A stretch of 64,000 bases of DNA from an uncultured bacterium (GTDB lineage: Bacteria; CAYJRR01): positions 7,113 to 71,112 of the forward strand of contig CAYJRR010000004.1 of assembly GCA_964372275.1 (NCBI GenBank), read 5' to 3'. The notes below the pieces were generated by a model. That model ran no database searches. It saw nothing but the letters and a program-made list of their open reading frames with translations, and was not told the origin of the DNA. A program made the position numbers and the translations under genes. Shown piece by piece: positions 11,728 to 59,763 of this stretch (position 1 is the first letter of the stretch; every line of letters starts with the position of its first letter).

Positions 11728-11735
11728 TCAGAACT

Positions 11736-11851: not shown

Positions 11852-11880
11852 CCGTAGCGCGGATCGACCCGCTTCAACCA

Positions 11881-18046: not shown

Positions 18047-18180
18047 TGCGCGGCGGCCGCGGAACGGCGGACCGGGCGCCGCGAACCGGCACGCGCGCGG
18101 CGCCCTTCCGATCGCCGGATCACGCCGCGCGCACGGGACGTTCCTACCGGGTCGCGGCGCGCCTCCTCCTCCTGCCGTCG

Positions 18181-19653: not shown

Positions 19654-19841
19654 CTTCGACCTAGACGCAGTGCGCCAAAAGTCGTACGGCCAGGCTGTCA
19701 CACCGACCGAAACGGCGGCGGCGGATGACTCTTCGTTCATCGAAATCCGGCCCCGTCCCGATCGCTTGCGCGGCCGCACCGGGTGCGGCGTTCGTGGCGC
19801 GCTCCTTGCTCACTTGGGCTGTCTTCCGGGGGAGGCGCTCG

Positions 19842-20881: not shown

Positions 20882-21408
20882 GCTCCGGCTCCGGCGGCCC
20901 TCCGACCTCGGGCGAGGAACGGGTCGACCTGACGGCGCTCGCGCGCAAGGCCCGCGAGAGCGGCGACTGGGGTCCGTTCGCCCGCGCCCTCCCCTTCGCC
21001 CGGTTTGCCGGTATCGAGGACGTCGTCCTCGACGAGCGAGCGGGTGGACCGCGCCGGTCGACGGCCATCCTTCGCTACGCGCCCCACGTCGTCGGCAATT
21101 CTCTGCTGCCGGCGCTCCACGGCGGTGCGGTCGGGGCGCTGCTCGAATGCGCGTCGATGTTCGAGCTCCTCCGCGCAGGCCACTCGGGTCAGTTCCCCAA
21201 GATCGTCAACATCACCATCCAGTACCTGCGATCGGCGCACGCCACCGACACCTTCGCCCGCGCCGAGATCACCCGGAAGGGTCGCCGCGTGGCCAACGTC
21301 CGCGCGGTGGCGTGGCAGGAGTCCCCCGAAAAGCCGGTCGCCACCTCCGACGCACAGTTCCTGCTGGCGGAAACGGTCACGGAACGAGATCGCCCGGCGC
21401 CGCGGTGA
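20878..21408 (+). CDS. PaaI-family hotdog-fold thioesterase (tandem paralogue)
   Basis: ATG at 20878 overlaps the upstream stop (ATGA). HGGAVGALLECASM is the equivalent motif to the upstream gene's HGGAITGMIDATCG. 176 aa. Confidence 0.7.
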   Translation: MSSGSGGPPTSGEERVDLTALARKARESGDWGPFARALPFARFAGIEDVVLDERAGGPRRSTAILRYAPHVVGNSLLPALHGGAVGALLECASMFELLRAGHSGQFPKIVNITIQYLRSAHATDTFARAEITRKGRRVANVRAVAWQESPEKPVATSDAQFLLAETVTERDRPAPR

Positions 21409-22176
21409 GACAGACTTCGGGCTTGGAGAAGACGGCGACCAGCCGGTAGCGGCGGTTCGGCCCGCCCTGCCGGGTAGGATCGGCTACGCGCGCGTAGATC
21501 GGCGCGCGCGAACGGGTCGTCGTCCAGGCGCAGCGATGCTCGCTGCGGGCGAGCGGCCTTCCGTCGCCGGCGAACAGCTCCACGATCGGCGCGAAGTCGG
21601 AGGGGGGTTCGTTCCCTGGGGCGGTGCCCAGGAGATCGACGCGCACCACGATCGTCTTGGCGGCGCCGGTGCCCGGCTGGATGCGGAACAGGTCGACGTC
21701 CCCCGGGGGATCGATCGCGGCGGCGTCGGGCTGCGCGATGGACTCGCTCGACGACGGCGGCCTTCCGAGGTCGAAGACGGTCGACGGCGTCACCTCGAAC
21801 GCCCACGGCGCCACCGCCAGCTCGTCTCCGCTCACCACCGCCAGGTCCTTGGGCCCCGTCCCGGCCGCGATCGAGACCAGCCCCTGCGCGATCAGCCGCG
21901 CGGACGACTCGACCGCGATCACCTGCAGCTCCTCGAACGCCGGCTGGTGGAGAAAGGTGCCGGCGTCGAAGTGCGTGCCCGACCCGGTTCCGACCACGGC
22001 GAACTGCAGCCGCTCGCCGCGCTCGACCCGCGCGCCGCCGGAGAGGGAGACGACCTCGCGCACCACCGCCTGCGGCCCGGGCGTCGGCACCGGCCGCGCC
22101 CGGTCGGGGGAGGATCCGTCGCACGCGGCGACGCCGACGGTGAGCAGGAGTGACCGGGGCCGGCGCCACGCGCGCA
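21377..22176 (-). CDS. lipoprotein, hypothetical
   Basis: ATG at 22176. The signal/lipobox is MRAWRRPRSLLLTVGVAAC. Only the C-terminal 266 aa of the 607-aa track ORF are protein-like. Divergent from the next lipoprotein gene. Confidence 0.55.
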
Positions 22177-22294
22177 TCGGGCCGACCGTAGCACGGTGAC
22201 GCCGGCGCGATCCGCCCGGCGCGCCCTGGACCGCGGGCGCTCTTCGGACGATACTTCGCCGTTCCGGCGGGGCACGTTCGCCGGCGGAGGAACG

Positions 22295-28439: not shown

Positions 28440-29332
28440 TCGATCGGGCTCTCGGCAAAGGCGCAGTCGTCGTAATCGATGCGGTCGGTCGCCGACGGAC
28501 TCTCGTCGCCGGCGAGCCCCTCGATCCAGCAGGCGATCGCCACGTAGGCGGCGTTGGTCAGCGGCGCGTTGGCGAGGGGCATGCGGCTGCCCGGGACGGT
28601 GGCGGTGATCCGCCCCCAGAGGTAGCTCCGCTCCGGGGAGCCGGGATAGATCAGCGCGCCCGCTTCGAGCCCGGCCTCCTCCGCCCCCCAGAACTCGTTG
28701 CCGTTCGGGTTTCCGCCGATCAGCGACTTCATCACCGGCGCGACGAGCGGCGGGACGAACTCGTCGTCGGCGCCGAGCGTCACCACCGCCTCCGCGGTTC
28801 CGGTCACCAGGGCGATCGACACGCCCCACTCCTCCGGGGGATTGAAGACGACGTTCCCCTCGGCGTCCTCGAACCGCGGCTGCTCCGACGCCGTGCTGGA
28901 GGGCGCGTCCCGCAGGCCCAGCTTCCAGGTCTTGGGTCCCACCGTCTCGACGTAGGCGATCTGGGTGACGAAGGCTCCCGCCTTCACTATGTCGGCGCGG
29001 CGCTCGCAGGCGTCCCAGCCCTGCGTCCGATCCGGAAGCTCGACGTTGCACGGCGCCTCGACGTAGGCCAGCGTGTTCCCCGCCGTCTCCAGGTTCGGGT
29101 AGTTGCTCGAGTTGTGGCAGACGTTCGGGTTGGGGCTGCACGTGCTGGAGAGCACGTTCTTCTGCAGGTCGAGGAAGCGGGGGAAGTTCGCGCGCGCCTC
29201 CCGGACGCTCGCCGGCTCGTTCGGATCGGGGGTCGGCGAGCCGCCGCCGTCCCCGGCCCCGCCGCTGCACGCGAAGGAGAGCGGGACGACCACCGCGAGC
29301 CACGACAGGGCGGGTCGGCGAACGTTCGTCAT
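28421..29332 (-). CDS. lipoprotein, hypothetical (Cys-containing)
   Basis: ATG at 29332. Signal/lipobox MTNVRRPALSWLAVVVPLSFAC. Its stop and start overlap with the next gene. The 169 upstream residues of the track ORF are Arg-rich junk. Confidence 0.6.
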   Translation of the reverse strand: MTNVRRPALSWLAVVVPLSFACSGGAGDGGGSPTPDPNEPASVREARANFPRFLDLQKNVLSSTCSPNPNVCHNSSNYPNLETAGNTLAYVEAPCNVELPDRTQGWDACERRADIVKAGAFVTQIAYVETVGPKTWKLGLRDAPSSTASEQPRFEDAEGNVVFNPPEEWGVSIALVTGTAEAVVTLGADDEFVPPLVAPVMKSLIGGNPNGNEFWGAEEAGLEAGALIYPGSPERSYLWGRITATVPGSRMPLANAPLTNAAYVAIACWIEGLAGDESPSATDRIDYDDCAFAESPIDYAVTE

Positions 29333-30699
29333 ACGAAGAGCTCCGCGATCGGCGCGTCCGACCAGTAGGGAGTAGGGGCGATTCCCAGGACGTCGAGAAT
29401 CGTCGAGAGCAGCTGTTTGCTGCTGTAGACCGTCCCGGTGGCGACCATCTGGTCGTCGCTGGAGCCGTACCGCTTTCCGCGATTCGCCGACGGGATCACC
29501 CCTCCCATCAGCGCGATCGCCTGGTTGCGGCAAGGACCCGGGAGGTAGCCGACGTGATCGCTTCCCGCCCCGGAGTTGAACCCCGTCTCCTCGGTGTTGT
29601 TGCGGGAGAACTCGCTCAGGACCACCACCAGCGTCTTGTCCCAGTAGGTTCCGCCGGTCGGATGGGGCATCGCCTTGAGCAGGTAGTTCAGGCCCGCCAG
29701 CTGACGCACGAGGTCCTTGCTGCGCGGGGCGTAGTTGAACTGCTCCCGGTCGTGCATGTCGTAGATGTCGCGGGTGACGACCGCGATCGGCGTGCCGAAC
29801 CCGAAGAAGCGCAGCGCCATCGCGACGTCGGCGCCCCACGAACGAAGGGACTGCTCATCGCCGATCGTCGAGAGGTCGTAGTCCCCGAGAACCTCCAGGA
29901 GCTGGGCATTGGTGAACCCGGCGTCGGTCCCGGTCGGGCTGCTCACGACGTTCAGCCGCGGGTCCTTGAGCATGTCGGCGAAGGTGGCGGCGTTCTGCTT
30001 CGACCCGAGGTAGTTGTTGAGGCGGAGGCGGAAGGTGCGGGGGCGGGTGTTCTTGAAGCGGGCGTCGACGGCCGCGCGCGCCGCCATCTTCCATCCCTTC
30101 CCGATCGGCTTGTCGGCGACGAAGGCGCTGTCCGCGCCGAAGACCGACAGGGGCCGGGTCTGGGCGTAGCTCCCGGTTCCGTTGCCGAACTCGGTCGGTC
30201 CGATCTCGACCGGCGGAACCGCGTCGAGGGTGAAACCGCCGGCGTACATCGGATGATCGCGCCCGATCAGCGACAGCAGCCCGCTTCCACCGTCCGGACT
30301 CCCGGTGCACATGCGGTAGGTCGCGGTGCGATGGTCGGTGTCGGCGATGCCGCCGGGGATGTGGTCGACGGAGGTCAGTACCGTGACCTCGTTCGAGATC
30401 GACGCGAACGAGGGGATCGACCCGAAGGAGTTCGTGACGATCGGGTCGGCGCCACAGGCGGCCCCCAGATCCCATTCGCGCCCGCCGAGCGGCGCTTGGA
30501 CCCCGAAGGGGTTGTGCTGCGTCGTGCCGACCGCGTTGAAGGTGGCGTGGCTCCGGAATCCGCCCTTGGCGAACAGCACCAGCACGTGCTCCGCCGCGCC
30601 GAAGGCGTCGGTCGCCCGCGCGAAGCGGGGCAGGAGCAGCGTCGGCGCAGCCGCCGACGTGAGGAGCGTCGTCTTCAGGAAGTCGCGGCGGGTGACCAT
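29329..30699 (-). CDS. TAT-secreted DUF1501/DUF1552-like protein (sulfatase-fold family)
   Basis: ATG at 30699. The twin-arginine motif is RRDFLKTTLL. 456 aa. Confidence 0.65.
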   Translation of the reverse strand: MVTRRDFLKTTLLTSAAAPTLLLPRFARATDAFGAAEHVLVLFAKGGFRSHATFNAVGTTQHNPFGVQAPLGGREWDLGAACGADPIVTNSFGSIPSFASISNEVTVLTSVDHIPGGIADTDHRTATYRMCTGSPDGGSGLLSLIGRDHPMYAGGFTLDAVPPVEIGPTEFGNGTGSYAQTRPLSVFGADSAFVADKPIGKGWKMAARAAVDARFKNTRPRTFRLRLNNYLGSKQNAATFADMLKDPRLNVVSSPTGTDAGFTNAQLLEVLGDYDLSTIGDEQSLRSWGADVAMALRFFGFGTPIAVVTRDIYDMHDREQFNYAPRSKDLVRQLAGLNYLLKAMPHPTGGTYWDKTLVVVLSEFSRNNTEETGFNSGAGSDHVGYLPGPCRNQAIALMGGVIPSANRGKRYGSSDDQMVATGTVYSSKQLLSTILDVLGIAPTPYWSDAPIAELFV

Positions 30700-30712
30700 C
30701 TTCGAGCTCCCC

Positions 30713-32332
30713 CTAGTAGAAGATCATCTCCGCGGAGCCCAAGAGCCCCACGCAGATCGAGTTCCTCAAGCCGGCCTCGGTGCACTCCTGCCCTTCGCAC
30801 GCCTCGGCCGCCGCCTCGTAGTCGGCGATCTCCTCCGCCGACGGACCACGTCCGAAGACCTGCTTCATCTGGTGCGTGAGGATCTTCGCCACCGTCTGCT
30901 CCCCCGACGGAGCGAGGTTCTGCGCCACGTATTCATCACAGAGCAGCTCGGCCAGCGACTCCTGGGTGAAGGCGAAGGCGAGCCCGGTCTGTTCCTGGCG
31001 CTGGTTCTGGTACCCGGGGCAGCCTCCGATCAGCCGCGCGACGTACACGTAGTCGTAGTTCGGATAGGCGCCGTCCTCGGTCTCGCGCCAGGGGAGCCGG
31101 CTCTCCTGCATCTCCCACAGGCGCCGGACGTCCGCCTGGTACTGCTCCAGGTCGATCGTGCCGTCGTCGTAGGCCTCGAAGAGGAAGAAGTAGGAGAAGC
31201 CGTCGGTGTAGCGCGGATCGCAGGTCCCGAGCTCGGCGGTGAGACGGCTCGCCGTGTCGAGCCAGTATTCGGCCGAACCCGCTTTCACCGGTCCGTGGGC
31301 GTAGATCTCGGGAACCGGCGCGGTCGGCGAATCGCCGAAGCCGTCGTCCTCCACCTTCGCCGACATGCGGTAGAGCCAGGAGGTCAGCAGAAGACGTTCC
31401 GCCGACGGGTAGCTGCCGGTCTTTTGGAGGTGCCGTGCGAGGACCTGCCGCACCTCCGGGAGCACGATCCCCGGCTCGCGCGGGAAGCGGCCGCCATCGC
31501 TCCAACCGAGGTAGCGGTTCAGGATCTCGTCGGCCGCCGCCTCCCAGAAGGCCGGCTGCCGGGTGAAGACCCGGCCCGCCTCGCGGATCGCGCTCCGCTG
31601 CGCCTCGTCCAGCTCCTCCCAGGCGACCCCTTCCGGCTCGGAGTCGTCGAACGGTTCCATGTCGATCGTGCCGCCGCCGAGCAGGTGCGCGGTGCAGGCG
31701 AAGAGCGGGTCGCACAGGAACGGCAGGATGCGCAGACCGACGCGGTAGGTGTATTCGAAGTCGGGATCCTGCTCGTAGTTCGGTACCAGCGGACGCCACA
31801 GGGAGGCGAGATCGGCCGCTTCGGCGTCGGAGGCACCGCGCCCGAGAAACGCTTCGAAGGCGATCCGCGTCCGGTCTTCGGGGTCGAAGACGTTGTTGAC
31901 GAAGCCGGGGTGGGTCAGGACCTCCTCGGCGAAGTCGTCGTAGCGAAGGTTGCCGCGGTGGAGATCGTCGACCCTCGCGTACAGCTCCTTCAGGTAGCGC
32001 CAGTCGGCGGTGACGTCGGTGGTGCGCAGGCGGTCGCGCCAATGCCGCTCCGAGACGAGGAGATACGCCTCGCGTCCCTGGAACCGCTTGGCGATCTCGT
32101 AGACGCTGCGGCCTTTGCACTCCGACGACACCTCGGCGGCGGTCGGCGAACGGCCGAGCAGGTCGGCGAAGAGTCGCCGGCAGATCTCGCCGGTGGAAGC
32201 CGCTCGGGGATCGATCCCCTTGGCGTCGAAGATCGGCGCCATCACCGCGTCGATGGCGTTCTCGTCGGAGTCCGGGGAACCGCACGCGAGCGTCGACGTC
32301 GCAACGGCGAGGAACAGGACCGCTCTTTTCAC
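30713..32332 (-). CDS. lipoprotein, hypothetical (partner of the DUF1501-like protein)
   Basis: The likely start is GTG at 32332, preceded by a GGAGGGG ribosome-binding site; an ATG at 32368 is the alternative. Lipobox VATSTLAC. About 540 aa. Confidence 0.55.
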   Translation of the reverse strand: MKRAVLFLAVATSTLACGSPDSDENAIDAVMAPIFDAKGIDPRAASTGEICRRLFADLLGRSPTAAEVSSECKGRSVYEIAKRFQGREAYLLVSERHWRDRLRTTDVTADWRYLKELYARVDDLHRGNLRYDDFAEEVLTHPGFVNNVFDPEDRTRIAFEAFLGRGASDAEAADLASLWRPLVPNYEQDPDFEYTYRVGLRILPFLCDPLFACTAHLLGGGTIDMEPFDDSEPEGVAWEELDEAQRSAIREAGRVFTRQPAFWEAAADEILNRYLGWSDGGRFPREPGIVLPEVRQVLARHLQKTGSYPSAERLLLTSWLYRMSAKVEDDGFGDSPTAPVPEIYAHGPVKAGSAEYWLDTASRLTAELGTCDPRYTDGFSYFFLFEAYDDGTIDLEQYQADVRRLWEMQESRLPWRETEDGAYPNYDYVYVARLIGGCPGYQNQRQEQTGLAFAFTQESLAELLCDEYVAQNLAPSGEQTVAKILTHQMKQVFGRGPSAEEIADYEAAAEACEGQECTEAGLRNSICVGLLGSAEMIFY

Positions 32333-32484
32333 GAGCCCCTCCGGTCGCTTGGATACAGCCGTCACCATTCTGCCACGAGCCGCCTTCTTCCTACGTCGGG
32401 TGCAGCCTCGGGGCCAAGGGCCCTAACCTCGCGCCGAATTGACGAATCGGGCGCGTCGGGGAGAATGCGGCGGCGGAGGCTTCC

Positions 32485-35208
32485 ATGCAGAGTGGACGAT
32501 TTGGGACAGCCCGACATGCGACCGTTCGCGCGGTGAGCCGCGTCACGCGGGTCGCCTTCCTGCTGCTCGGTCTCGCGTCGTGTCGGCGCGAGGGCGGCCC
32601 GCGCACGATCGACGACCTCGGCGTCGACCAGACGATCCGCCTCAACGGGCTTTCCGACCGCGTCGACGTCGTCCGCGACAAACTCGGCCGTCCCCACCTC
32701 TACGCCTCGAGCGAGGAGGACCTGGCGCGGGTGGTCGGATGGCTCCACGCCGAGGACCGCTTCGTCCAGATGGACCTGCAGCGCCGTTTCGCCGGCGGGA
32801 CGGTGGCGGAACTGGTCGGGGCGCTGGTTCCCGAGGCGGTTCAATCGGACGAGCGGATGCGGGCCATCGGCCTCGCGCGCACTGCGCAGCAGATCTACGA
32901 CGGGCTTCCGGCCGGCTCCGACCTGAAGGAGATGCTCGATGCCTACGCCGAAGGGGTGAACGCCAAGCTCGCCACCTTCAACGAGCCCCCGGCGCCGGAG
33001 TACGACATCTTCGGCTATCCGTTCGAGGAGACGCCGCCGTGGACGCCGGTCGATTCGCTGACCGTCGGGCGGCTCCTCTCGTTCACCCTGGCGTGGGACG
33101 GCGACGCCGAGCTCGCGATGCAGGAGGCGGTCGACGCCTTCTCCGCGGCCTTCCCCGAGGGGGACGCGCGCGCGGGGATCGTCGACGACCTGGTGCTGCG
33201 CATCGCGCCGACGGTGCCGGTCTCGATCGTCGATCCCGACCTCGAGCTCGTCTCCGCGAGCGGCGCCTCGTCGAGGAGCGGCGTACGGCCGCGCGCCCCG
33301 ATCTCACGCGAGGTGGTGCGCGGCGCGCGCGCCTTCGCCGAGGCGGTGCTGCACGACCGCTGGAACCCGTTGCGCGGCATCGACAACGGATCGAACAACT
33401 GGGTCGTCGGCGGATCACGGACCAAGAGCGACCATCCGCTGCTGGCGAACGACCCGCATCTGGGGATCGAAAACCCGCCGGTCTGGTACGAGGTGCATCT
33501 CGACACCCAGCGGGCGGGGGGCGACTACGAGGTCGTCGGCGTCTCGCTTCCGGGGGTCCCGCTGGTGATCCTCGGCGCGAACGATTCGGTCGCCTGGGCG
33601 ATGACCAACCACGAAGCCGACGTCACCGACGTCTTCGTCGAGCGCTACTCCGTCGGCACCGGCGCCGGCGGCGTCGACCAGGTGGAGTGGGACGCCGACG
33701 GACCGGGGGGCGAAAGCCCCGCGTACGTCGACCTGGTGAAGGAGGAGCACGTCATCCAGCGGCGGATCGACGCCGAGACGGTGGAGAACCTCGACTACAC
33801 CGTCTGGCGGACGGCGCACCGGAACGGCGTCGTCATCCCGGGCTCGGTCGTCGCCGGGACGGCGCTTTCCTGGGCCTGGACCGGCTTCGAGGCGACGAAC
33901 GAGATGGCGGCGATCCACGGTCTTTCGCGCGCCACCTCGGCGGCCGAAGTGGTCGCGGCGGCGGCCGACTTCGAGGTCCCGAACGAGAACCTGGTCTATG
34001 CCGACGTCGCCGGGAACATCGGTTACGTGGCGAACGGCCTCTACCCGGTCCGCGCCGACGACGACGGCGATCTCCACACCGATCCGCCGCTGCTTCCCGT
34101 CCCCGGGTACGACGGCGCGCACGAGTGGATCGGCTGGGTCGCCGCCGGGGACGTGCCGGCCGAGTCGAATCCGGTACGCGGCTGGATCGCGTCGGCGAAC
34201 AACGATCCGCTGGGGCATAGCTTCGACAACGACCCGTTCGACGATCCCGTCTACATCGGCTCCAACGTGCACGACATCGGCTTCCGCGCGGCCCGCATCT
34301 CGGAAGTGCTCGACGACGCGAGCGAGTTCACCGTCGGCGACATGCAGGCGCTGCAAGGGGACCACGTCTCGAACGTCGGCCGGCGGATGCTCCCGTTCCT
34401 GCTCGAATCGCTCGGGGACGACTTCGCCGACGAGGCGGCGCTGCTCGAGGGCTGGAGCACCCGAGGCTTCCGCGCCGCCTCGGGGGTCGGCGACGACGTC
34501 CCGTCGGCGGAGGTCGACGACGCCGCGGCGACCTCGCTGTTCAACATCTGGCTCTACTGGATGCTGTGGGGGGCGTTCGGCGATGAGATGGAGGCGGCCG
34601 AGAGCTGGCTCGGCGACCAGGAGCTGCTGCGCGGCGCCTTCTTCCTCCTCGAGCACCCGACCGAGGCCGCGACCTACGACGAGACGACGCAGGAGCCTGC
34701 GCTGTGGGACGACGTGACGACCGGCCCCGTCGAATCCCGCGACGAGATCTTCGTCGAGGCGTTCGAGAACGCGCTCGACTGGCTCGCGTCGGACGCGGGC
34801 TTCGACTCCTCCGACCCGGACGACTGGCGGTGGGGACTGCTGCACCGGCTGGTGATCGCGCGGGTCTCGACGCTGTCGAACTACGACATCCCCGACCCGT
34901 TCGATCCCGAGTTGGGGGACGGCTTCCCGCGCCACGGCGACCTCTACAACGTCGACGTCGGAAACTGGTCGATCTATGGGACCGGCTTCGGCTACACCCA
35001 CGGCGCGTCGATGCGCCTGGTCGTCGACCTGACGCCGGGACGGGTGCGGGTCTTCAACGCCCTTCCCGGCGGCGCCTCCGCCGACCCCGCGAACAAGCAC
35101 TTCGACGACCAGGCCACCCGCTACGCCGCCAACCGCTCGTTCGAGTTCTGGTCCCGCGAGCGGGACGTGGCCGGCCACGCCGAGCGGCGCATCCTTTTCC
35201 TCCCCTGA
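32485..35208 (+). CDS. penicillin acylase family protein (Ntn-hydrolase; possible AHL/penicillin amidase), lipoprotein
   Basis: ATG at 32485. Lipobox LLLGLASC. The segment GSNNWVVGGSRT holds the N-terminal Ser nucleophile of the beta subunit. 907 aa. Confidence 0.8.
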   Translation: MQSGRFGTARHATVRAVSRVTRVAFLLLGLASCRREGGPRTIDDLGVDQTIRLNGLSDRVDVVRDKLGRPHLYASSEEDLARVVGWLHAEDRFVQMDLQRRFAGGTVAELVGALVPEAVQSDERMRAIGLARTAQQIYDGLPAGSDLKEMLDAYAEGVNAKLATFNEPPAPEYDIFGYPFEETPPWTPVDSLTVGRLLSFTLAWDGDAELAMQEAVDAFSAAFPEGDARAGIVDDLVLRIAPTVPVSIVDPDLELVSASGASSRSGVRPRAPISREVVRGARAFAEAVLHDRWNPLRGIDNGSNNWVVGGSRTKSDHPLLANDPHLGIENPPVWYEVHLDTQRAGGDYEVVGVSLPGVPLVILGANDSVAWAMTNHEADVTDVFVERYSVGTGAGGVDQVEWDADGPGGESPAYVDLVKEEHVIQRRIDAETVENLDYTVWRTAHRNGVVIPGSVVAGTALSWAWTGFEATNEMAAIHGLSRATSAAEVVAAAADFEVPNENLVYADVAGNIGYVANGLYPVRADDDGDLHTDPPLLPVPGYDGAHEWIGWVAAGDVPAESNPVRGWIASANNDPLGHSFDNDPFDDPVYIGSNVHDIGFRAARISEVLDDASEFTVGDMQALQGDHVSNVGRRMLPFLLESLGDDFADEAALLEGWSTRGFRAASGVGDDVPSAEVDDAAATSLFNIWLYWMLWGAFGDEMEAAESWLGDQELLRGAFFLLEHPTEAATYDETTQEPALWDDVTTGPVESRDEIFVEAFENALDWLASDAGFDSSDPDDWRWGLLHRLVIARVSTLSNYDIPDPFDPELGDGFPRHGDLYNVDVGNWSIYGTGFGYTHGASMRLVVDLTPGRVRVFNALPGGASADPANKHFDDQATRYAANRSFEFWSRERDVAGHAERRILFLP

Positions 35209-35353
35209 CTCCGGGCCGATCGACCGGACCGGCGGCCCACGACGGTTTCCCGTGTGATTTTGGCTTCCTGCGGGTAGAGTGCCGGCAACCGATCGCGGAC
35301 GATGCCCCCTCGATGACCGAGAGGAGACCGCGAGCGAGGAAGGTGGGCTACGC

Positions 35354-35776
35354 ATGGGTACCAGGCTTTTCGTCGGAAATCTTTCGTTCGGCACCACGGA
35401 GGAGACGCTCCGTGAGGCGTTCGCGGCGAACGGCCGCGAGGTCCGCGAGGTCTCGATCGTCACCGACCGCGACACCGGCCGTCCGCGCGGCTTCGGATTC
35501 GTCGAGATGAGCTCCAACGAGCACGCGCAGGCGGCGATCGCCGAGCTCGACGGCAAGAATCTCGACGGCCGTGCCATCAAGGTGAACGAAGCGCGCGAGC
35601 GCTCGTCCGGCGGCGGCGGGTTCGGCGGCGGACGCGGCGGATTCGGCGGCGGGGGCGGAGGCTACGGCGGGGGCGGCTTCGGCGGCGGCGGAGGCTGGGA
35701 AGGTGGCGGTGGCGGAGGCGGCGGGGGCGGCCGCGGGGGTCGCGGCGGTCGAGGAGGCGGAGGTCGGGGTCGGTGA
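35354..35776 (+). CDS. glycine-rich RNA-binding protein (RRM domain)
   Basis: ATG at 35354 with a GAGGAAGGTGGG ribosome-binding site. The RNP2 motif is LFVGNL and the RNP1 motif is RGFGFVEM. The C-terminal tail is Gly/Arg-rich. Confidence 0.85.
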   Translation: MGTRLFVGNLSFGTTEETLREAFAANGREVREVSIVTDRDTGRPRGFGFVEMSSNEHAQAAIAELDGKNLDGRAIKVNEARERSSGGGGFGGGRGGFGGGGGGYGGGGFGGGGGWEGGGGGGGGGGRGGRGGRGGGGRGR

Positions 35777-35958
35777 GCGGACGCGGACGGATGACGATCA
35801 CCAAGCGCCAGAAGGAACGCGCGAGGGAGGAACGCCGCAAGGAGAAGGCCGACCGGGCCGCGCGCCGCAAGCTCGAGAAGAGCGAGCGCCCGCGCGAAGA
35901 CGGCGTCGACCCCGACATCGCGGGGATCGTGCCCGGCCCGCAGCCGATCCCGGAGTGA
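35773..35958 (+). CDS. small basic (Lys/Arg-rich) hypothetical protein
   Basis: GTG at 35773 overlaps the RRM gene's stop (GTGA); an ATG at 35791 is an alternative start. 55-61 aa and highly charged. Confidence 0.35.
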   Translation: MSGRGRMTITKRQKERAREERRKEKADRAARRKLEKSERPREDGVDPDIAGIVPGPQPIPE

Positions 35959-35992: not shown

Positions 35993-37213
35993 ATGGAGAC
36001 GGGAACGAGGGAGCGGCAGGCGGTCTTCGTCATCGCCGACATCAGCGGCTACACGCCGTTCATGGCGCAGCACAAGAAGGCGCTGGCCCACAGCCAGATG
36101 GTCATCTCGGCGCTGCTGCAGACGATCCTCGAGCAGTGTGACTCCGGGCTCCAGGTCGCCAAGCTCGAAGGGGACGCCGCGTTCCTCTACGCCTTGCGCG
36201 ACGGCGGCGAGAAACAGCTCGGTCGCCGGCTGCTGGCAATCGTCGACCGGTTCTGGCACAAGCTCGCCGAGCTGACGGCCACCAGCATCTGCAACTGCGA
36301 CGCCTGCACCACCATCGATCGCCTGCGCCTAAAGATCGTCGTCCACGCGGGGGAGGCGCTGTTCTACAAGATCGGCGCCTTCGAGGAGCTGTCCGGCTTT
36401 GACGTGATCGTGGCGCACCGGCTGCTCAAGAACTCGGTCGAGGCGGACCAGTACATCCTCCTGACCGAGGAGGCGTATCGGGCGATCGAGTTCGGCGAGG
36501 CGATCCACGCGCAGGGATCGGAGAGCTACGACGGCATCGATCCGATCCGGACCTACGTCCACTTCCCCGCCGTCGAGCGGATCCAGTTCGGCGACGGAGT
36601 CCTCAAACCGTGGGCCTCCGGCGGGGTCGCGGTGGAGATCCTGCGCTACGAGGTGCGGAAGGAGTACGCGGAGGTCGCGACCTGCCCCACCAAGGGGTTC
36701 CACTTCCACACCGGTCGGCCGCTGGCGGCGATGTGCGGCTATCCGGCGGCGTGGATCGACGAGCTGCCGGCCGCCGCCGTCGAATCGATGGCCGGGACCG
36801 GCAATCCGTTCCAGGTCGGACCGCTCCGGGCGGGCGAGCGGGTCGTCGACGTCGGTTGCGGCGCCGGCGCCGACAGCCTGATCGCCGCGCGCCAGGTGGG
36901 ACCGAGCGGGCGCGTGAAGGGGTTCGACCTCACGCCGCAGATGGTCGCCAAGGCGAGGGGGTCGGCGGCGGAGGTGGGACTCACGAACGTCGAGTTCGCC
37001 GAGGCGGAGGCGGAGGCGATCCCGGTCGAGGACGGCTGGGCCGACGTCGTCATCTCCAACGGCGCGATCAACCTCTGCCCGGACAAGGGGCGCGTCTTCC
37101 GCGAGCTGTTCCGCGTGCTCAAGCCGGGCGGGCGGCTGCAGATCGGCGACATCGCCGTCGAGCGCGCCGTGCCGGAGAAGGCCAAACGCAAGCTCGACCT
37201 CTGGACCGGTTGA
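35993..37213 (+). CDS. DUF2652/nucleotide-cyclase-like domain fused to an ArsM-like SAM-dependent methyltransferase; the frame ends at an in-frame TGA that replaces a conserved Cys codon (candidate selenocysteine; a possible readthrough product would extend to 37384)
   Basis: ATG at 35993. Methyltransferase motifs are VVDVGCGAG, VISNGAINL and FRVLKPGG. The ORF ends LDLWTG-TGA. The next in-frame codons encode IAGALLEAELGQVVTEAGFEGFAV..., continuing the conserved ArsM C-terminus (LW.GC.AGAL). Confidence 0.7.
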   Translation: METGTRERQAVFVIADISGYTPFMAQHKKALAHSQMVISALLQTILEQCDSGLQVAKLEGDAAFLYALRDGGEKQLGRRLLAIVDRFWHKLAELTATSICNCDACTTIDRLRLKIVVHAGEALFYKIGAFEELSGFDVIVAHRLLKNSVEADQYILLTEEAYRAIEFGEAIHAQGSESYDGIDPIRTYVHFPAVERIQFGDGVLKPWASGGVAVEILRYEVRKEYAEVATCPTKGFHFHTGRPLAAMCGYPAAWIDELPAAAVESMAGTGNPFQVGPLRAGERVVDVGCGAGADSLIAARQVGPSGRVKGFDLTPQMVAKARGSAAEVGLTNVEFAEAEAEAIPVEDGWADVVISNGAINLCPDKGRVFRELFRVLKPGGRLQIGDIAVERAVPEKAKRKLDLWTG

Positions 37214-37222
37214 ATTGCCGGC

Positions 37223-37241
37223 GCTCTGCTGGAGGCAGAGC
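37223..37241 (+). promoter_or_regulatory. SECIS-like hairpin 9 nt downstream of the in-frame TGA (7-bp perfect stem GCTCTGC/GCAGAGC, loop TGGAG)
   Basis: Read directly from the sequence. A perfect inverted repeat sits immediately 3' of the UGA, and the apical loop contains GG. Confidence 0.4.
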
Positions 37242-37411
37242 TCGGGCAGGTGGTGACGGAGGCCGGGTTCGAGGGGTTCGCCGTCACGTGGCGCGCCGAC
37301 GTCTTCTCGGGCGCGCCGCAGTCCTCCAGCGCCCACAAGTTCGGCACCGTCGGCATCAACTTCACCGCCCGCAAGCCGGGCTGACGCACGCCGGATCGCG
37401 CGGATCCCGCG

Positions 37412-43430: not shown

Positions 43431-43539
43431 AGGATGGGCGCAGAAGGCCGCGCCGACCGCGGTTCGCGTCGGTTCGAGTCGCCTTGACCGGTCTCGACCC
43501 TCGCTGCTATCAACCCTCTTTCCTTTCAGGGGGTTGGCC

Positions 43540-44808
43540 GTGGGCGCGCTTCGCCTTTCGGCGTGGCGGTCGGTGTCCGACGAGGACTGGGCCGACGGAC
43601 GCTGGCAACTCAAGAACCGCGTCACGACGCGCGCGGCGCTGGAGTCGGTCCTCGCCCTTTCCGACGACGAGCGGGCCGGCGTCGCCGCCGCCGAGACGAG
43701 CGGCGGATTCGAGTGGGGGATCACCCCCTACTACCTCGACCTCGTCGACCCCTCCGATCCGCGCGATCCGATCCGGTTGCAGTGCGTTCCGCGCGGCGCG
43801 GAGGGGCACGTCGTTCCGCACGACCGGGTCGATCCGCTCGGGGAGGACCCGAAGATGCCGGTGCCGGGGCTGGTGCACCGCTATCCGGATCGCGTCCTCC
43901 TGCTGTTGACCGACCGCTGCAGCGTCTATTGCCGCTTCTGCACCCGCCGGAGGCTGGTCGGGACGGAGGAGCGTCAGCTTCGCGCCGCGGAGCTGGATCG
44001 CATCGTCGACTACCTCCAGAGCCGGCCGGAGGTCCGCGAGGTGATCGTCTCCGGCGGCGATCCGCTGGTCGCCGGCGACCGATTCCTGGAGACGACGCTC
44101 GCCCGGTTGCGCGCGCTCCCGTCGATCGAGCTGTTGCGGATCCACACCCGCATGCCGGTGGTCTGCCCGCAGCGGATCACCGCGCGGCTCGCGCGGACGC
44201 TCCGGCGCTTCCAGCCGCTCTACGTCGTCACCCACTTCAACCACCCCTACGAGGTCACCCCGGAGGCGGCGGCCGCCTGCGCGCGGCTCGCCGACGCCGG
44301 CGTGCCGCTCGCCAATCAGGCGGTGCTGCTCGCCGGGGTCAACACCGACGCCGCGATCCTCGAGGCGCTTTCCCGGGAGCTCTTGCGCGTGCGCGTCCGG
44401 CCCCACTACCTCCATCAGGGGGACCTCGCGTCGGGGACCGAGCACTTCCGCACGCCGCTCGACGCGGGTGTCCGTCTCCTCTCCGCGCTCCGAGGGCGCC
44501 TGTCGGGGCTCGGGATCCCGCAGCTGATCGTCGACCTGCCCGGCGGCAAGGGGAAGGTCTCGGTCGCGGCCGACCCGGTCGCCCGCCGCCACGGCCGCGA
44601 GATCGACTTCCACGCCCCGCTGGGAGGGACCGCGCGCTACGTCGAACCGGCGGCGACCGACCTCGCCTGCTCGACGGCCCACGCGGTCGCGCGCCGCTAC
44701 CGCATCGCGCCGACCGAGGCCCGCCCCGCCCTCGACGCGGCCGCCACCGCGCGGCGTCCGGCGGACGCTCCTCTCGTGCGACTCGCCCGGCCGGGAGGAC
44801 GACAGTGA
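43540..44808 (+). CDS. kamA: lysine 2,3-aminomutase (radical SAM)
   Basis: CSVYCRFCTRRR is the CxxxCxxC radical-SAM cluster in the KamA-specific context. GTG at 43540 or TTG at 43534 is the start. Confidence 0.85.
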   Translation: MGALRLSAWRSVSDEDWADGRWQLKNRVTTRAALESVLALSDDERAGVAAAETSGGFEWGITPYYLDLVDPSDPRDPIRLQCVPRGAEGHVVPHDRVDPLGEDPKMPVPGLVHRYPDRVLLLLTDRCSVYCRFCTRRRLVGTEERQLRAAELDRIVDYLQSRPEVREVIVSGGDPLVAGDRFLETTLARLRALPSIELLRIHTRMPVVCPQRITARLARTLRRFQPLYVVTHFNHPYEVTPEAAAACARLADAGVPLANQAVLLAGVNTDAAILEALSRELLRVRVRPHYLHQGDLASGTEHFRTPLDAGVRLLSALRGRLSGLGIPQLIVDLPGGKGKVSVAADPVARRHGREIDFHAPLGGTARYVEPAATDLACSTAHAVARRYRIAPTEARPALDAAATARRPADAPLVRLARPGGRQ

Positions 44809-46418
44809 GCCGCGAACGCGGGCCGATCCAGGTCGACGCCAGGAAGATCGCGGCCGCGCGCGCGCTGGCCGAGTCGATCACCGCCGACGTGCAGGCGTTC
44901 ATCGACCGCCATACCACCGTTTCGGTCGAACGCAGCGTGCTGCGGCTGCTCGGCGTCGACGGCGCGCACAGGGCCGACGGCGCCGAGGTACCGCTGGTGA
45001 ACGTCGTCGTCGAGGAGGTCCGAAAGGCAGGAAGGCTCGACGACGGGATCGCCTCCGTCCTCGCCGCCGCGGAGAAGACGCAGGGCGGAAGCCTCCAGGA
45101 GGTCTGCGAACGGATCGCCCGGAAGGAGATCGAGCCAGGCAGCCTTCCGCGACTCGATCCCGGCGAGGTCGAGGCGATGCTAGGGCTCAGAGCCGACGAC
45201 GCGGTGGCGCGCCTGCACGCCTGCCGCGATCGGAAGCGGGAGAAGCTGGCGAAGTACGGCGACGCGACCCGGCCCTACAACTACGTGATCGTCGCCACCG
45301 GGAACATCTTCGAGGACGTTGTGCAGGCGAAGGCCGCCGTCGACGCCGGCGCCGACATCATCGCGGTGATCCGCTCCACCGCGCAGTCGTTGCTCGACTA
45401 CGTCCCGATCGGCACCACCACCACCGGCTTCGGCGGCACCTGGGCCACCCGCGAGAACTTCCGCGTGATGCGCGCCGCGCTCGACGAAGAAGAGAAGAAG
45501 CGGAACCGCTACCTCCGGCTGACCAACTACTCCTCCGGGCTGTGCATGTCGGAGATTGCGGTCCTGGCCGCGTTCGAGGACCTCGACTGCCTGCTGAACG
45601 ACTCGATGTACGGGATCCTCTTCCGCGACATCAACATGAAACGGACCTTCGTCGACCAGTACTTCAGCCGGCTGGTCTGCGCCAACGCCGGGATCATGAT
45701 CCAGACCGGCGAGGACAACTACCTCACCACCGCCGAGTCGCTGGGCGCCTTCCACCAGGTCGTCGCCAGTCAGTTCATCAACGAGTCGTTCGCCAAGCGC
45801 GCCACCCTGCCGGACGAGCTGATCGGACTCGGACACGCCTACGAGATGGACCCGGCGACCCCCGACTCCTTCCTCCTGGAGCTAGGACAGGCGCTGCTGG
45901 TCCGGGAGTGCTTCCCGCACGCGCCATTGAAGTACATGCCGCCGACGCGGCACATGACGGGCGACATCTTCTTCGGCCACGTCTACGACTCGTTCTTCAC
46001 GCTCGCGTGCGTCTGGAGCCGTCAGACGACGCAGCTTTTGGGAATGCCGACCGAGGCGGTTCACACCCCGCTCCTGATGGACCGCTACCTCTCGCTGGGC
46101 GCGGCGAACTACGTGAAGCGGGCCGCGGCGGGGATCGCCTCTGAGGTCCGGTTCGCGCCCGACGGCATCGTCCAGACGCGCGCGCGCCAGGTGCTCGACG
46201 AGGCGCTCGCGCTCCTGGAGGAGGTCCGGCGCGTCGGATTGATGAAGGCGATCTCGCTCGCGCGCTTCGCCGACGTGAAACGCCCGGTCGACGGCGGAAA
46301 GGGGCTGGAGGGGGTGGTTCCCAAGTCCCGCCGCTACGCGAATCCGCTGTCGGGGCGGATGCTTGAGGGCCGTCCCGCGAATAAATCGAAGGGGCGTTCC
46401 GTCGACCTTCGCAGGTAG
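44805..46418 (+). CDS. kamD: lysine 5,6-aminomutase alpha subunit (beta-lysine 5,6-aminomutase)
   Basis: GTG at 44805 overlaps the kamA stop. 537 aa with a PLP-binding TIM-barrel-type sequence, conserved along its length with KamD. Confidence 0.8.
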   Translation: MSRERGPIQVDARKIAAARALAESITADVQAFIDRHTTVSVERSVLRLLGVDGAHRADGAEVPLVNVVVEEVRKAGRLDDGIASVLAAAEKTQGGSLQEVCERIARKEIEPGSLPRLDPGEVEAMLGLRADDAVARLHACRDRKREKLAKYGDATRPYNYVIVATGNIFEDVVQAKAAVDAGADIIAVIRSTAQSLLDYVPIGTTTTGFGGTWATRENFRVMRAALDEEEKKRNRYLRLTNYSSGLCMSEIAVLAAFEDLDCLLNDSMYGILFRDINMKRTFVDQYFSRLVCANAGIMIQTGEDNYLTTAESLGAFHQVVASQFINESFAKRATLPDELIGLGHAYEMDPATPDSFLLELGQALLVRECFPHAPLKYMPPTRHMTGDIFFGHVYDSFFTLACVWSRQTTQLLGMPTEAVHTPLLMDRYLSLGAANYVKRAAAGIASEVRFAPDGIVQTRARQVLDEALALLEEVRRVGLMKAISLARFADVKRPVDGGKGLEGVVPKSRRYANPLSGRMLEGRPANKSKGRSVDLRR

Positions 46419-46445
46419 AATCCACGAGAACTCTTGGAGGGTCCC

Positions 46446-47117
46446 ATGGTCTCCACGCCGAACCCGCGCAACGCTCCGGTCCTGGTCCCGGTCCTGACGG
46501 CGGTCGCGTCGATCGCCAGCCTCGTCGCGGGCTGCGGACCGCCGCCCGCCACGCCGCGCGCCGAGACGATCGAGCAGTGGGCGACCGGGAGCACCTCCTC
46601 CTCGAACGGATCGACGGGGACCGACTGGGCGTCGATCCAGGCGTTGGGGGAACCGGACGTCGTCGACGAGTTCGGGACTCCGATCTGCGACGACAACCCG
46701 AACGCCTGGTCGCCGGCCGAGGCCAATCCGGTGCCCGGCGTGAGCGGCGGCGACTACATCGACGATTGGCTCGAGCTCACCTACGACTACTACGTCTTCG
46801 TACGCAAGGTCCGCATCTACGAGACGTTCGCGCCGGGGGCGATCGTGGCGGTCGACCTGGAGCGCACCGACGGCGCGCTGCCGCCGCTGCCGGTCTACGA
46901 GAACCCCGACGGCAACGGCGAGATCCCCGGGCCCACGCCGTGCCCGAGCGTCTTCAAGATCGAGACGACGAACGGACCGACCCCCGACCAGTACAACCGG
47001 GTGGTGATCTACATCGACTCCAACCTGGTCGGCGACGTCAACGGCGTGAACGGGTCGGAGGACGACTACAACGAGATCGACGCCGTCCAGCTGATCGGCG
47101 ACATCCTCGTCGACTGA
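46446..47117 (+). CDS. lipoprotein, hypothetical (inserted between kamD and kamE)
   Basis: ATG at 46446 with a GGAGGG ribosome-binding site. Lipobox SLVAGC. 223 aa. Confidence 0.6.
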   Translation: MVSTPNPRNAPVLVPVLTAVASIASLVAGCGPPPATPRAETIEQWATGSTSSSNGSTGTDWASIQALGEPDVVDEFGTPICDDNPNAWSPAEANPVPGVSGGDYIDDWLELTYDYYVFVRKVRIYETFAPGAIVAVDLERTDGALPPLPVYENPDGNGEIPGPTPCPSVFKIETTNGPTPDQYNRVVIYIDSNLVGDVNGVNGSEDDYNEIDAVQLIGDILVD

Positions 47118-47124
47118 CCGGCGC

Positions 47125-47928
47125 ATGGACGCCCATCTGCCGAAGACCTCCTCCGCGGGAGGGGCTCGCGGTCCGGACCCGAAGAACCTACGAGCCTACG
47201 GCGACATGTGGGACGACGGGACGCTGCAGGTCTCGTTCTGCCTGCCGATGGAGGCGGGTCCCGAGGCGCGCGAGGCGGCGACCCAATACCTGCAGAAGCA
47301 CGGTTTCAAGAAGATCGGGATCGCGGAGATGGGGCGGGCGGCCGCCGGGTTCTCCTTCTTCGTCGCCTATGTCCGCTCGCCGGTCTCGGTCGACGTCACG
47401 CGGATCCGCGTGCCCAAGGTCGACACCCCACGTCTGTCGTTCGACGAGGTGAACGACCTCCTGCGAACGCGGCTCGGTCGGAAGTTGGTGGTCGTGGGGG
47501 CCTGCACCGGCGCCGATGCCCACACCGTCGGGATCGACGCGATCATGAACATGAAGGGGTTCGCCGGGGACTACGGGCTCGAGCGCTACCCCGAGATCGA
47601 GGCCCACAACCTGGGGGCCCAGGTGCACAACCGCGACCTGGTGGCGAAGGCGAAGGAGCTCGGGGCCGACGCCATCCTCGTTTCGCAGGTGATCACCCAG
47701 CACGACATCCACGTCGAGAACCTGCGCGAGCTGATGGAGGAGATCGAGAAGGCGGGGATGAAGGAGAGGCTGATCACCGTCGTCGGGGGTCCGCGCGTCA
47801 CGCACCGGCTGGCAGTGGAGCTCGGCTTCGACGCCGGGTTCGGACGGGGGGCGACCCCGTCGGAGGTTGCCTCGTATCTTTCGCAGGAGCTGCTGAAGCG
47901 GTCGAAGCCGGCGAAAGGCGAGCGGTGA
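47125..47928 (+). CDS. kamE: lysine 5,6-aminomutase beta subunit (B12-binding)
   Basis: The cobalamin-binding DxHxxG motif is GADAHTVG. Rossmann-like B12 domain. 267 aa. Confidence 0.8.
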   Translation: MDAHLPKTSSAGGARGPDPKNLRAYGDMWDDGTLQVSFCLPMEAGPEAREAATQYLQKHGFKKIGIAEMGRAAAGFSFFVAYVRSPVSVDVTRIRVPKVDTPRLSFDEVNDLLRTRLGRKLVVVGACTGADAHTVGIDAIMNMKGFAGDYGLERYPEIEAHNLGAQVHNRDLVAKAKELGADAILVSQVITQHDIHVENLRELMEEIEKAGMKERLITVVGGPRVTHRLAVELGFDAGFGRGATPSEVASYLSQELLKRSKPAKGER

Positions 47929-48147
47929 CGGCTGTCCGCGCCGTCCCGCGCGGGCGTTGACGTCGACCCGTTCGGTTGTTGTCATCCTCCTGTGAGCCGC
48001 GACGACAAGACCCGAGAGACGAAGGCCCCGCGCCCGCTGTCCGGCGACCGGTCCCGCACGAGCGGCGGGTCGGCCGACCCTTGGGCGGCCGACGAGCAGA
48101 CGCGGCTTTCGAAGCAGCGCCGGCCGCAGGCCAAGCTCCGTCTGCGG

Positions 48148-48507
48148 ATGTCGACGCACGACGCCCACTACGGCGGGAACCTCGTCGACGGAGCGCGGAT
48201 GTTGGCGCTGTTCGGCGACGTGGCGACCGAGCTGTTGATCCGACTCGACGGCGACGAAGGGTTGTTCCGCGCCTACGATCGGGTCGAGTTCCTGGCGCCG
48301 GTCCACGCCGGCGACTACGTCGAAGCGGTCGGGCGTCTGGTCGACCTGGGGAACACGTCGCGCCGGATCGAGTTCGAGGCGTGGAAAGTGATCCGCGCGC
48401 GCCCCGACCTCTCCGACTCCGCGGCCGAGGTGCTCGAGGAACCGGTGCTGGTCGCCCGCGCGTCGGGGACCTGCGTCGTCCCCGCCGCGAAACAGAGGCA
48501 TCGCTAA
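48148..48507 (+). CDS. kal: 3-aminobutyryl-CoA ammonia-lyase (hotdog fold)
   Basis: The C-terminal ~119 aa match the Kal size and fold. The upstream in-frame extension to GTG 47992 is low-complexity and probably not translated. Confidence 0.65.
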
Positions 48508-59634: not shown

Positions 59635-59643
59635 CGAAACCCG

Positions 59644-59763
<120 letters not shown>

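Follow-up and report, generated by a model that had tools for sequence, protein, structure and literature searches.

A DUF2652–methyltransferase fusion gene of an uncultured bacterium appears to encode an ArsM-derived selenoprotein

We analysed a 64-kb stretch of DNA from an uncultured bacterium (positions 7,113 to 71,112 of contig CAYJRR010000004.1, GenBank assembly GCA_964372275.1), hereafter the window, in which positions are counted from its first letter. On the forward strand, an open reading frame (ORF) of 406 codons runs from an ATG at 35993 to a TGA at 37211–37213 and ends in ...KRKLDLWTG, and the frame then stays open for another 56 codons (IAGALLEAELGQVVTEAGFEGFAVTWRADVFSGAPQSSSAHKFGTVGINFTARKPG) up to a second TGA at 37382–37384. 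An inverted repeat (GCTCTGC/GCAGAGC, 37223–37241) begins 9 nt past the first TGA. When the first TGA is read as selenocysteine (Sec), the gene at 35993–37384 comprises 463 codons, with Sec as codon 407, plus the terminal TGA, and the predicted peptide across the site is LDLWTG-U-IAGALLEAELGQ. The product would join an N-terminal DUF2652 domain to a methyltransferase domain related to the arsenite methyltransferase ArsM. The original prediction, made from the sequence alone, held that the UGA encodes Sec at a conserved Cys of ArsM, and its coordinates for the ORF, the TGA at 37211–37213, the 56-codon tail, the TGA at 37382–37384 and the inverted repeat were all confirmed in the sequence. A scan for promoters and terminators around the gene found none.

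The codon composition was of the coding type on both sides of the first TGA. The GC content at third codon positions (GC3) was 0.96 upstream and 0.94 in the 56-codon C-terminal tail (37214–37381, forward strand; IAGALLEAEL...GINFTARKPG), and this TGA was the only in-frame TGA of the window, the GC content of which is 70.5%, with coding-type GC3 on both sides. TGA is also the commonest ordinary stop codon in the window, where it terminates 18 of the 29 confident ORFs, and reading through the codon at 37211 would therefore be site-specific recoding with no variant genetic code.

We then searched 5.8 billion proteins for homologues and obtained 5182 matches at E ≤ 1e-10, from which the best 120 were taken for details. 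All 120 carried the DUF2652 (PF10851) and methyltransferase domains at 49–63% identity to the query, and 119 ended at the residue aligned with G406, in the context ...(D/E)LW(T/A/S)(G/N). No homologue of about 460 aa was present among these best 120 of the 5182 matches, indicating that the read-through product is annotated in no public source. In a profile search against 1.84 billion 50%-identity cluster representatives, all of the intact fusion representatives ended at the site aligned with G406, and metagenome gene callers often list the tail as a separate 'hypothetical protein' of 56–75 aa.

Taken at face value, these annotations would mean that the ORF is truly truncated at 37211, as a pseudogene or a naturally short protein followed by a 168-nt untranslated remnant, since the gene callers in every public source stop at this site and Sec machinery was not seen in the window. 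The genomic loci of the homologues pointed the other way. A tblastn scan of one genome per GTDB species yielded 79 loci, 16 of which (L001–L016) contained a full DUF2652–methyltransferase gene, and their alignments ran through the stop to query residues 461–463. The hosts of these 16 were Chloroflexota (Dehalococcoidia, Anaerolineales), Acidobacteriota (Thermoanaerobaculia), Gemmatimonadota (Longimicrobiales) and Acidimicrobiia; L004 and L008 are on the complete Longimicrobiales chromosomes OZ252109.1 and OZ250165.1. The remaining loci encoded stand-alone methyltransferases that were 57–69% identical to the C-terminal half. At the 79 homologous sites counted (78 in related loci from at least eight phyla, plus the window), the codon was TGA in 70, TGC in 7 and TGT in 2, and never TAA or TAG, whereas the true terminators of the same genes comprised 45 TGA, 22 TAG and 11 TAA codons. 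The Cys-codon homologues read straight through the site, and Sec forms far outnumbered Cys forms in the clade.

The sequence following the site was conserved in every locus, with the consensus IAGALLEAEL..AGF..FEITWR.DVF.GAPQ.SSA..FGT.GINFRA.K. In tail codons 11–36, the pairwise differences among the TGA forms were 0.21, 0.25 and 0.53 at codon positions 1, 2 and 3, respectively, and this bias towards third positions argues for a translated segment under purifying selection at the protein level. The original prediction had proposed a conserved, non-decaying tail and had raised the opposite possibility of relatives that end at the same site with no conserved tail; no such relative was found among the loci. 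Given the same TGA at 70 sites in many phyla, the coding-type tail and the Cys-codon homologues that continue through the position, we regard a true truncation as highly improbable.

After the consensus tail, most loci stop within a few codons, while approximately 25 stand-alone loci carry a C-terminal extension of 15–40 residues. The ends of the orthologues match the second TGA of the window (37382), which is thus a genuine stop. A second Sec at this codon, as in the UXPK-star proteins, was considered and rejected, because orthologues end there with TAG or TAA.

No Cys-codon version of the DUF2652 fusion was found. Two candidates for such a version, P0222 and P0225, were set aside: their sequences are apparently unrelated after the SNG/DDW region, and they look like frame-shifted calls. 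In one of the fusion-bearing loci, from a Dehalococcoidia metagenome-assembled genome (MAG; CBDFJT010000003.1, L007:9995–12260), the fusion gene has its TGA at 11228, and about 200 nt beyond the gene comes a stand-alone methyltransferase paralogue with a TGA at 12082 and the same hairpin, forming a tandem pair of Sec genes.

The inverted repeat was then evaluated as a selenocysteine insertion sequence (SECIS). The hairpin of 7 bp that had originally been proposed is present at 37223–37241 of the forward strand, but it is better drawn with 8 bp and a GGA triloop, as U26 and R30 also pair. The 5' arm occupies 37223–37230, the loop 37231–37233 and the 3' arm 37234–37241, and the element encodes A-L-L-E-A-E-L. 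The published model of bacterial SECIS (bSECIS) elements specifies a loop of 3–9 nt, a stem of 4–16 bp, a G in the first two loop positions, a distance of 16–37 nt from the UGA and a minimum free energy of −7.5 kcal/mol or lower (PMC13188914, Fig. 2 legend). With a 3-nt loop, an 8-bp stem, G at loop position 1, 17 nt between the UGA and the loop, and −11.7 kcal/mol, the hairpin has the bacterial geometry that had been claimed for it and agrees with all four published constraints, and its loop U-GGA-R fits the bSECIS pattern N1-G-[G/U]-N-N2.

Across 69 aligned TGA sequences, GCUCUGCU-GGA-RGCAGAGC was near-invariant, and RNAalifold independently gave the same 8-bp helix. Standard pairs occupied 97.8% of the cells in these sequences, compared with 30–51% when the 3' arm was slid by 1–3 columns. 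Both-sided (compensatory) changes occurred at three pairs, and the observed values were reached by none of 500 shuffles. These changes included GCGCUGC...GCAGCGC in L010 and L013 (EAEL to EAAL), GCUCUUC...GGAGAGC in L039 (EAEL to EGEL) and GCUCUUC...GAAGAGC in L050 (EAEL to EEEL), the pairing being kept in each case at the cost of the peptide. Third-position variation was 0.06–0.08 in the stem codons, as opposed to 0.39–0.71 in the adjacent codons and 0.63 in the stem codons of the Cys forms. The near-frozen third positions of the stem include GCU and GCA alanine codons, which are expected to be disfavoured in high-GC genomes.

The hairpin was absent from all nine TGC/TGT homologues. The folding energy of the 19-mer was −11.7 kcal/mol in the window and −10.8 kcal/mol on average in the TGA forms, versus a mean of −3.5 kcal/mol in the Cys forms. 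When both strands of 1.1 Mb were searched with a covariance model built on the 60-nt region, scores of at least 55.9 bits were confined to these UGA sites (71, including L051 and L072, which had been missed by the regular expression), while the Cys forms scored 21–39 bits; the single match in the window was the region of the 37223–37241 hairpin. One deviating locus was observed in a Dehalococcoidia MAG (CAXXHW010000004.1, L002:11216–11260), where 12 nt between direct repeats (CTGGAAGC) are deleted in frame; the 3' arm of the SECIS is lost and the TGA stays, leaving −1.1 kcal/mol and a covariance score of 23 bits. Either the gene is dead at this locus or the deletion is an artefact of assembly.

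The coupling of codon and hairpin also bears on the quality of the sequence itself. TGA and TGC differ by one base, and the DNA probably stems from a contig assembled from a metagenome, so that a sequencing or assembly error at a true TGC codon could be envisaged. TGA occurs together with the same hairpin in independent assemblies at 69 other sites, however, and the Cys-codon forms have no hairpin whereas the window has one, which leaves such an error a negligible chance.

Translation through the UGA by a standard tRNA, either by near-cognate decoding as Trp or Cys or under a reassigned code, would produce the same conserved tail with no Sec, and the inserted residue cannot be told from sequence comparison alone. 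On the other hand, most confident ORFs of the window (18 of 29) use TGA as their ordinary stop, the alternative codon at the site is always that of Cys, which is the signature of a Sec/Cys pair, and a bSECIS-type hairpin is strictly coupled to TGA. In addition, catalogued selenoproteins of the ArsM family have their Sec at this same UxxG position (PMC13188914). We consider decoding by a standard tRNA improbable, and the sequence evidence strongly supports selenocysteine as the residue encoded by the UGA at codon 407.

We propose that the ribosome would meet the UGA at codon 407, where the mRNA hairpin 9 nt further on would act as a bacterial SECIS and, following the established bacterial mechanism, recruit SelB and Sec-tRNA(Sec). 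Sec would then be inserted and translation would run for 56 codons to the stop at 37382–84. Within this scheme, the sequence comparisons described above establish the UGA and its hairpin, translation of the tail and the pairing of Sec with Cys among homologues.

We next examined the two domains of the predicted protein. The methyltransferase domain extends over 36635–37381 of the forward strand (aa ~215–463) and includes the post-UGA tail. Pfam assigned Methyltransf_31/25/11 to aa 279–425, with PF13847 at 115.6 bits. The S-adenosylmethionine (SAM)-binding Gly-rich motif VVDVGCGAG (36842–36868, forward strand; aa 284–292) aligns with vlDlGcGtG of CmArsM; V284, G288, G290 and G292 are invariant in alignment A1 (G288, G290 and G292 also in alignment A3), and D286 is conserved in at least 90%. 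A phmmer search against the PDB matched CrArsM (5evj, E = 1e-27) and CmArsM (4fr0/4kw7, E ~1e-19). In these alignments, the UGA (37211–37213, forward strand; residue 407, motif U-I-A-G) falls on the Cys of ...GEC(L)(A/G)GAL, namely CmArsM Cys224 and its equivalent in CrArsM, at the UxxG position. The column is occupied by Cys in the solved ArsM structures and in the nine Cys-codon homologues, so the homologues form Sec/Cys pairs, and the proposed placement of Sec at the conserved ArsM Cys was borne out.

The other arsenic ligands of ArsM have no counterpart in this protein. In the PDB alignments, AGTGNP (36791–36808, forward strand) stands in place of the GCGNP of ArsM, replacing CmArsM Cys72 by Thr, and SNG (37055–37063, forward strand) stands in place of SNC, replacing Cys174 by Gly; S355, N356 and G357 are invariant in both A1 and A3. 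No Cys aligns with CmArsM Cys44, and an invariant GFHFHTGR motif (HFH at residues 237–239) is found in its place. The Cys72-to-Thr and Cys174-to-Gly replacements are invariant in the fusion family and are present in practically every stand-alone relative as well, including the Cys forms; SNG was seen at all loci of the clade and the Thr at nearly all.

All of the NCBIfam scores were below the respective cut-offs: 221 against 510 bits for NF041537, 219.3 against 263 for PRK11873, 201 against 460 for NF047649 and 194 against 575 for NF041536. Five relatives of differing architecture also remained under every NCBIfam cut-off (217–237 bits for PRK11873). On these sequence scores, the clade is a distinct branch of the ArsM superfamily for which NCBIfam has no model. 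The initial description as ArsM-like thus holds for the fold and the ancestry, but it does not extend to the As(III)-binding cysteines other than the Sec position, and arsenite methylation is accordingly not to be assumed. Judging from these residues, the protein is probably not a classical arsenite methylase.

The N-terminal DUF2652 domain, homologous to class III nucleotide cyclases, covers 36008–36562 of the forward strand (aa ~6–190), and its PF10851 match at aa 38–154 scores 103.6 bits, above the gathering score of 22.1. For the first 406 aa, AlphaFold2 gave a confident model, with a predicted local distance difference test score (pLDDT) of 89.9 and a predicted template modelling score (pTM) of 0.85. 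Foldseek matched the N-terminal half of this model to the class III adenylyl/guanylyl cyclase domains of CyaC, Cya2 and Rv1900c, with target-normalised template modelling (TM) scores of 0.67–0.76, and the C-terminal half to CrArsM, CmArsM and human AS3MT; the overall top match was 5evj at 37% identity. D61 is invariant in A1 and A3, and D16 is invariant in A1 and conserved in at least 90% in A3; by motif comparison, we take these two residues to be the metal-binding Asp pair of cyclases. DUF2652 had been predicted to be cyclase-like (Ramakrishnan et al. 2016, PMC4886424), in agreement with the Foldseek matches to cyclases. The domain may serve as a sensor, a cyclase or a metal site.

A CxCxxC motif (C100, C102 and C105; 36290–36307, forward strand) lies in the DUF2652 domain and is invariant in A1 and A3. 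The same motif was found in 78 of 81 DUF2652 representatives (P0228–P0367), stand-alone proteins included, so it is general to DUF2652 and not an adaptation of this fusion. It was for this reason rejected as a fusion-specific As(III) site of the ArsR type, and the identical spacing of the As(III) site of ArsR R773 (Cys32/34/37; PMC11868830) is a resemblance only.

Functional leads came from the stand-alone relatives. In the approximately 25 stand-alone loci with a C-terminal extension, the extension ends in ..AL.AL.C(E/D)(I/V)P with a conserved Cys. A TusA sulfur-carrier domain (PF01206) follows the extension in several homologues, namely the Cys forms L027, L058 and L059, the Sec form L029 (coordinates 10571–11060 for the TusA-type extension in these four loci), and P0129 and others; P0163, P0181 and P0201 are further proteins of this extended group. 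Recurrent neighbours of the stand-alone genes were genes for a major facilitator superfamily (MFS) transporter and an OsmC-like protein (9 loci each), an ArsR-family helix–turn–helix (HTH)–rhodanese regulator (8 loci) and a rhodanese–metallo-beta-lactamase protein (7 loci), as seen in the flanks of L019, L021, L024, L038, L040, L044, L045, L066, L069, L070, L078 and others. We take this set of neighbours to resemble the sulfide/persulfide detoxification clusters of the BigR/Blh type.

A link to arsenic was found in P0227 (608 aa), a protein of three parts: an AhpD-like domain, an ArsM of the canonical kind whose cysteines are all present (GCGNP, SNCVINL and WSCCLGGAL) and a second methyltransferase domain, of the 'SGTG/SNG' type. 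It ends in ...IDAWAT, exactly at the Sec site, and is probably another truncated selenoprotein call. As far as its sequence indicates, the 'GTG/SNG' type would have a connection with arsenic metabolism in one lineage or more.

This protein is among the points that would favour a bona fide As(III) SAM methyltransferase in which Sec replaces one ligand, since a related Sec-type domain is here fused to a canonical ArsM. In addition, the best family and structure matches of the window protein are to ArsM, Sec occupies the Cys224 ligand position, and several homologues are labelled 'arsenite methyltransferase' by the Joint Genome Institute (JGI). Against these stand the absence across the clade of three of the four conserved ArsM cysteines, with AGTGNP and SNG invariant or nearly so, the PRK11873 scores (219 bits for the window protein and 217–237 for its relatives against a cut-off of 263), and the surroundings, in which there are no ars genes nearby and the neighbours of the relatives are sulfur-trafficking genes. 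We therefore judge a genuine ArsM to be unlikely.

In the preferred reading of an ArsM-derived selenoprotein with a different activity, Sec would take the place of the third metalloid-binding Cys of ArsM (CmArsM Cys224), beside the methyl group of SAM. With the other ArsM cysteines gone across the clade, the methyltransferase site would retain no soft ligand but the single selenolate, and the enzyme would methylate a soft substrate held covalently on this selenolate. The selenolate could carry an atom of sulfane sulfur or selenium, or a dialkylated As(III), during transfer of the methyl group. Since ArsM binds methylated (MAs(III)) or inorganic trivalent arsenic (As(III)) with two or three thiolates, a site that one selenolate cannot form, the candidate substrates would rank as chalcogen, organoarsenical and inorganic arsenite, in this order. 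A reactive chalcogen species (sulfide/persulfide, selenide or a tellurium species) is our first candidate by analogy with the TusA fusions and the ArsR–rhodanese, rhodanese–metallo-beta-lactamase and OsmC neighbours of the stand-alone relatives, although we hold it tentatively and at less than even odds. An already alkylated trivalent arsenical, needing one thiolate-type ligand, is a distinctly less probable candidate, inorganic As(III) is an unlikely one, and the remaining probability falls to some other substrate.

A more specific version can be formulated on the near-exclusive use of Sec in the clade. The single selenolate might capture sulfane sulfur or selenide as an Se–S or Se–Se adduct and methylate it, and the fusion might couple this reaction to the CxCxxC-containing, cyclase-like domain for sensing or signalling of the same stress. 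We consider this scheme speculative and rather doubtful; if true, the activity would be new among selenoenzymes, and chalcogen detoxification would be connected with nucleotide signalling in a new way.

Taken as a whole, the explanation that the gene at 35993–37384 encodes a 463-residue, SECIS-dependent selenoprotein, namely a two-domain methyltransferase derived from ArsM, is assigned a probability of roughly 90%. Several observations weigh against it. No selA, selB, selD or tRNA-Sec was detected in the 64-kb window by ARAGORN, Rfam or Pfam on 36 ORFs, and a tblastn of the window with an E. coli SelD query gave no match. Sec machinery was likewise not found in the ~1 Mb of flanks of about 60 related loci, which cover a small part of each genome. 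Taken alone, the fold of the window hairpin region was not exceptional, with −30.8 kcal/mol against −25.0 ± 3.1 kcal/mol for shuffled sequences (z = −1.87; 9 of 200 shuffles as good). As such an energy is unremarkable for DNA of 70.5% GC, the single-sequence argument is weak, and it is the comparative data that show more than chance. The AlphaFold2 model covers the 406 residues that precede Sec, and the proposal on function was drawn from the context of stand-alone paralogues at 57–69% identity. Finally, no gene neighbourhood was conserved around the DUF2652 fusions in other genomes.

Upstream of the gene and on the same strand, the window encodes a penicillin amidase (32485–35208), a glycine-rich RNA recognition motif (RRM) protein (35279–35776) and a 61-aa basic ORF (35773–35958). 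The 165-aa RRM RNA-binding protein and the overlapping, highly basic 61-aa ORF (35279–35958) lie 34 nt from the ATG of the selenoprotein gene, and co-transcription of the three is possible. The downstream ORFs are on the opposite strand and have no Pfam match, and no ars genes were found in the window.

Elsewhere in the window, an acyl-CoA dehydrogenase (2842–4584) has its best named relatives in Myxococcales MAGs at 71–77% identity, which makes a Myxococcota MAG the probable source of the window; Myxococcota were not among the 16 fusion-bearing genomes recovered. A region encoding a KamA-like radical SAM protein, a protein with B12-binding and D-ornithine aminomutase dimerisation domains and a 4HBT thioesterase (43534–48507) looks like an amino-acid aminomutase pathway. 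We also observed a Bat-like cluster (DUF58, BatA-VWA and GATase1-like; 11809–18046) and a DUF1501/PSCyt2 (DUF1549) gene pair (29329–32368). In four kilobase-scale regions (9137–11809, 18046–19725, 20411–22196 and 57614–59676), no ORF passed the GC3-based coding test, which is unusual for bacterial DNA at this gene density.

The immediate consequence of the selenoprotein assignment is a correction of annotation, of relevance to selenoprotein and arsenic-cycle specialists. In public annotation, the window protein and its relatives, which number in the thousands, end at the UGA and appear at NCBI as 'DUF2652 domain-containing protein' of 400–415 aa; databases, structure predictions and metabolic inferences consequently lack the catalytic residue and the 56 residues behind it. 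The assignment also means that a further, widespread selenoprotein architecture occurs in Chloroflexota, Acidobacteriota, Gemmatimonadota, Actinomycetota and others. As the arsenic-binding cysteines are absent, these genes should not be counted as arsM in environmental surveys of arsenic methylation. Should the substrate be a sulfur or selenium species, the family would represent a new selenoenzyme function. It also offers a clean natural experiment in SECIS evolution, with a near-identical hairpin across phyla that is lost exactly when UGA changes to UGC or UGU.

Sec at this ArsM-like position is already established, and the recoding is the standard bacterial mechanism. The listing of the arsenite S-adenosylmethyltransferase family (PRK11873) among the selenoproteins dates back to Fomenko et al. 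2007 (cited in PMC13188914), and an ArsM-type selenoprotein was listed in the Global Ocean Sampling (GOS) survey of Zhang and Gladyshev 2008 (PMC2398784). A 2026 review lists the Sec motif UxxG for the ArsM family, together with the three ArsM/methyltransferase fusion selenoproteins of Haft and Tolstoy 2025 (PMC13188914). The DUF2652 fusion architecture and its apparently exclusive use of Sec were not found in the searchable literature or curated models, although Haft and Tolstoy 2025 may mention stand-alone forms, and the same sources did not describe the clade-wide loss of the arsenic-binding Cys residues or the near-identity of the SECIS across phyla. In the searchable literature, DUF2652 is mentioned by two papers, and in neither of them in connection with Sec. 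What is new is the DUF2652 fusion, always truncated in public annotation, with no Cys-codon version found and with a clade-wide loss of the ligand cysteines in a group that stays under every NCBIfam cut-off.

Compared with the ArsM/AS3MT-family selenoprotein (PRK11873), the window protein agrees in its methyltransferase fold family, in carrying Sec within UxxG and in the hairpin that lies within the coding region immediately behind the UGA, but it differs in its N-terminal DUF2652 domain, its sub-cut-off score and the absence of the other ArsM cysteines, and in its clade Sec forms greatly outnumber Cys forms. The best NCBIfam models, NF041537 (ArsM/AhpD), NF041536 (ArsM/DUF2284) and NF047649 (methyltransferase/UXPK-star), have in common with it the UxxG site and the fusion of an ArsM-like Sec domain. 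Unlike these, the window protein has no AhpD, DUF2284 or C-terminal UXPK and ends in ...ARKPG followed by the stop; its fusion partner is N-terminal and cyclase-like, and it contains one Sec instead of two or three.

The crystallised enzymes CmArsM (4fr0, 4fs8 and 6cx6), CrArsM (5evj) and human AS3MT (8xt7) share the Rossmann SAM-binding core with the window protein, at 37% identity to 5evj over the aligned core, and their motif L-x-G-E-C-L-(A/G)-G-A-L aligns with L-W-T-G-U-I-A-G-A-L. They carry GCG(N/S), SNC and an N-terminal Cys where the window protein has GTGNP, SNG and GFHFHTGR, and a large C-terminal domain where it has a short tail of 56 aa. From the DUF2652 proteins (PMC4886424), the window protein retains the PF10851 match, the class III cyclase fold, the two Asp residues (D16 and D61) and CxCxxC, whereas the members described there have a single domain and about 250 aa, apart from one fusion to a polyketide cyclase, and neither a methyltransferase fusion nor a link to selenocysteine is mentioned. 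Finally, bSECIS elements that follow the consensus usually differ widely from one another, while the 19-nt hairpin found here is near-identical across at least eight phyla and, unlike usual bSECIS elements, is locked to the peptide A-L-L-E-A-E-L.

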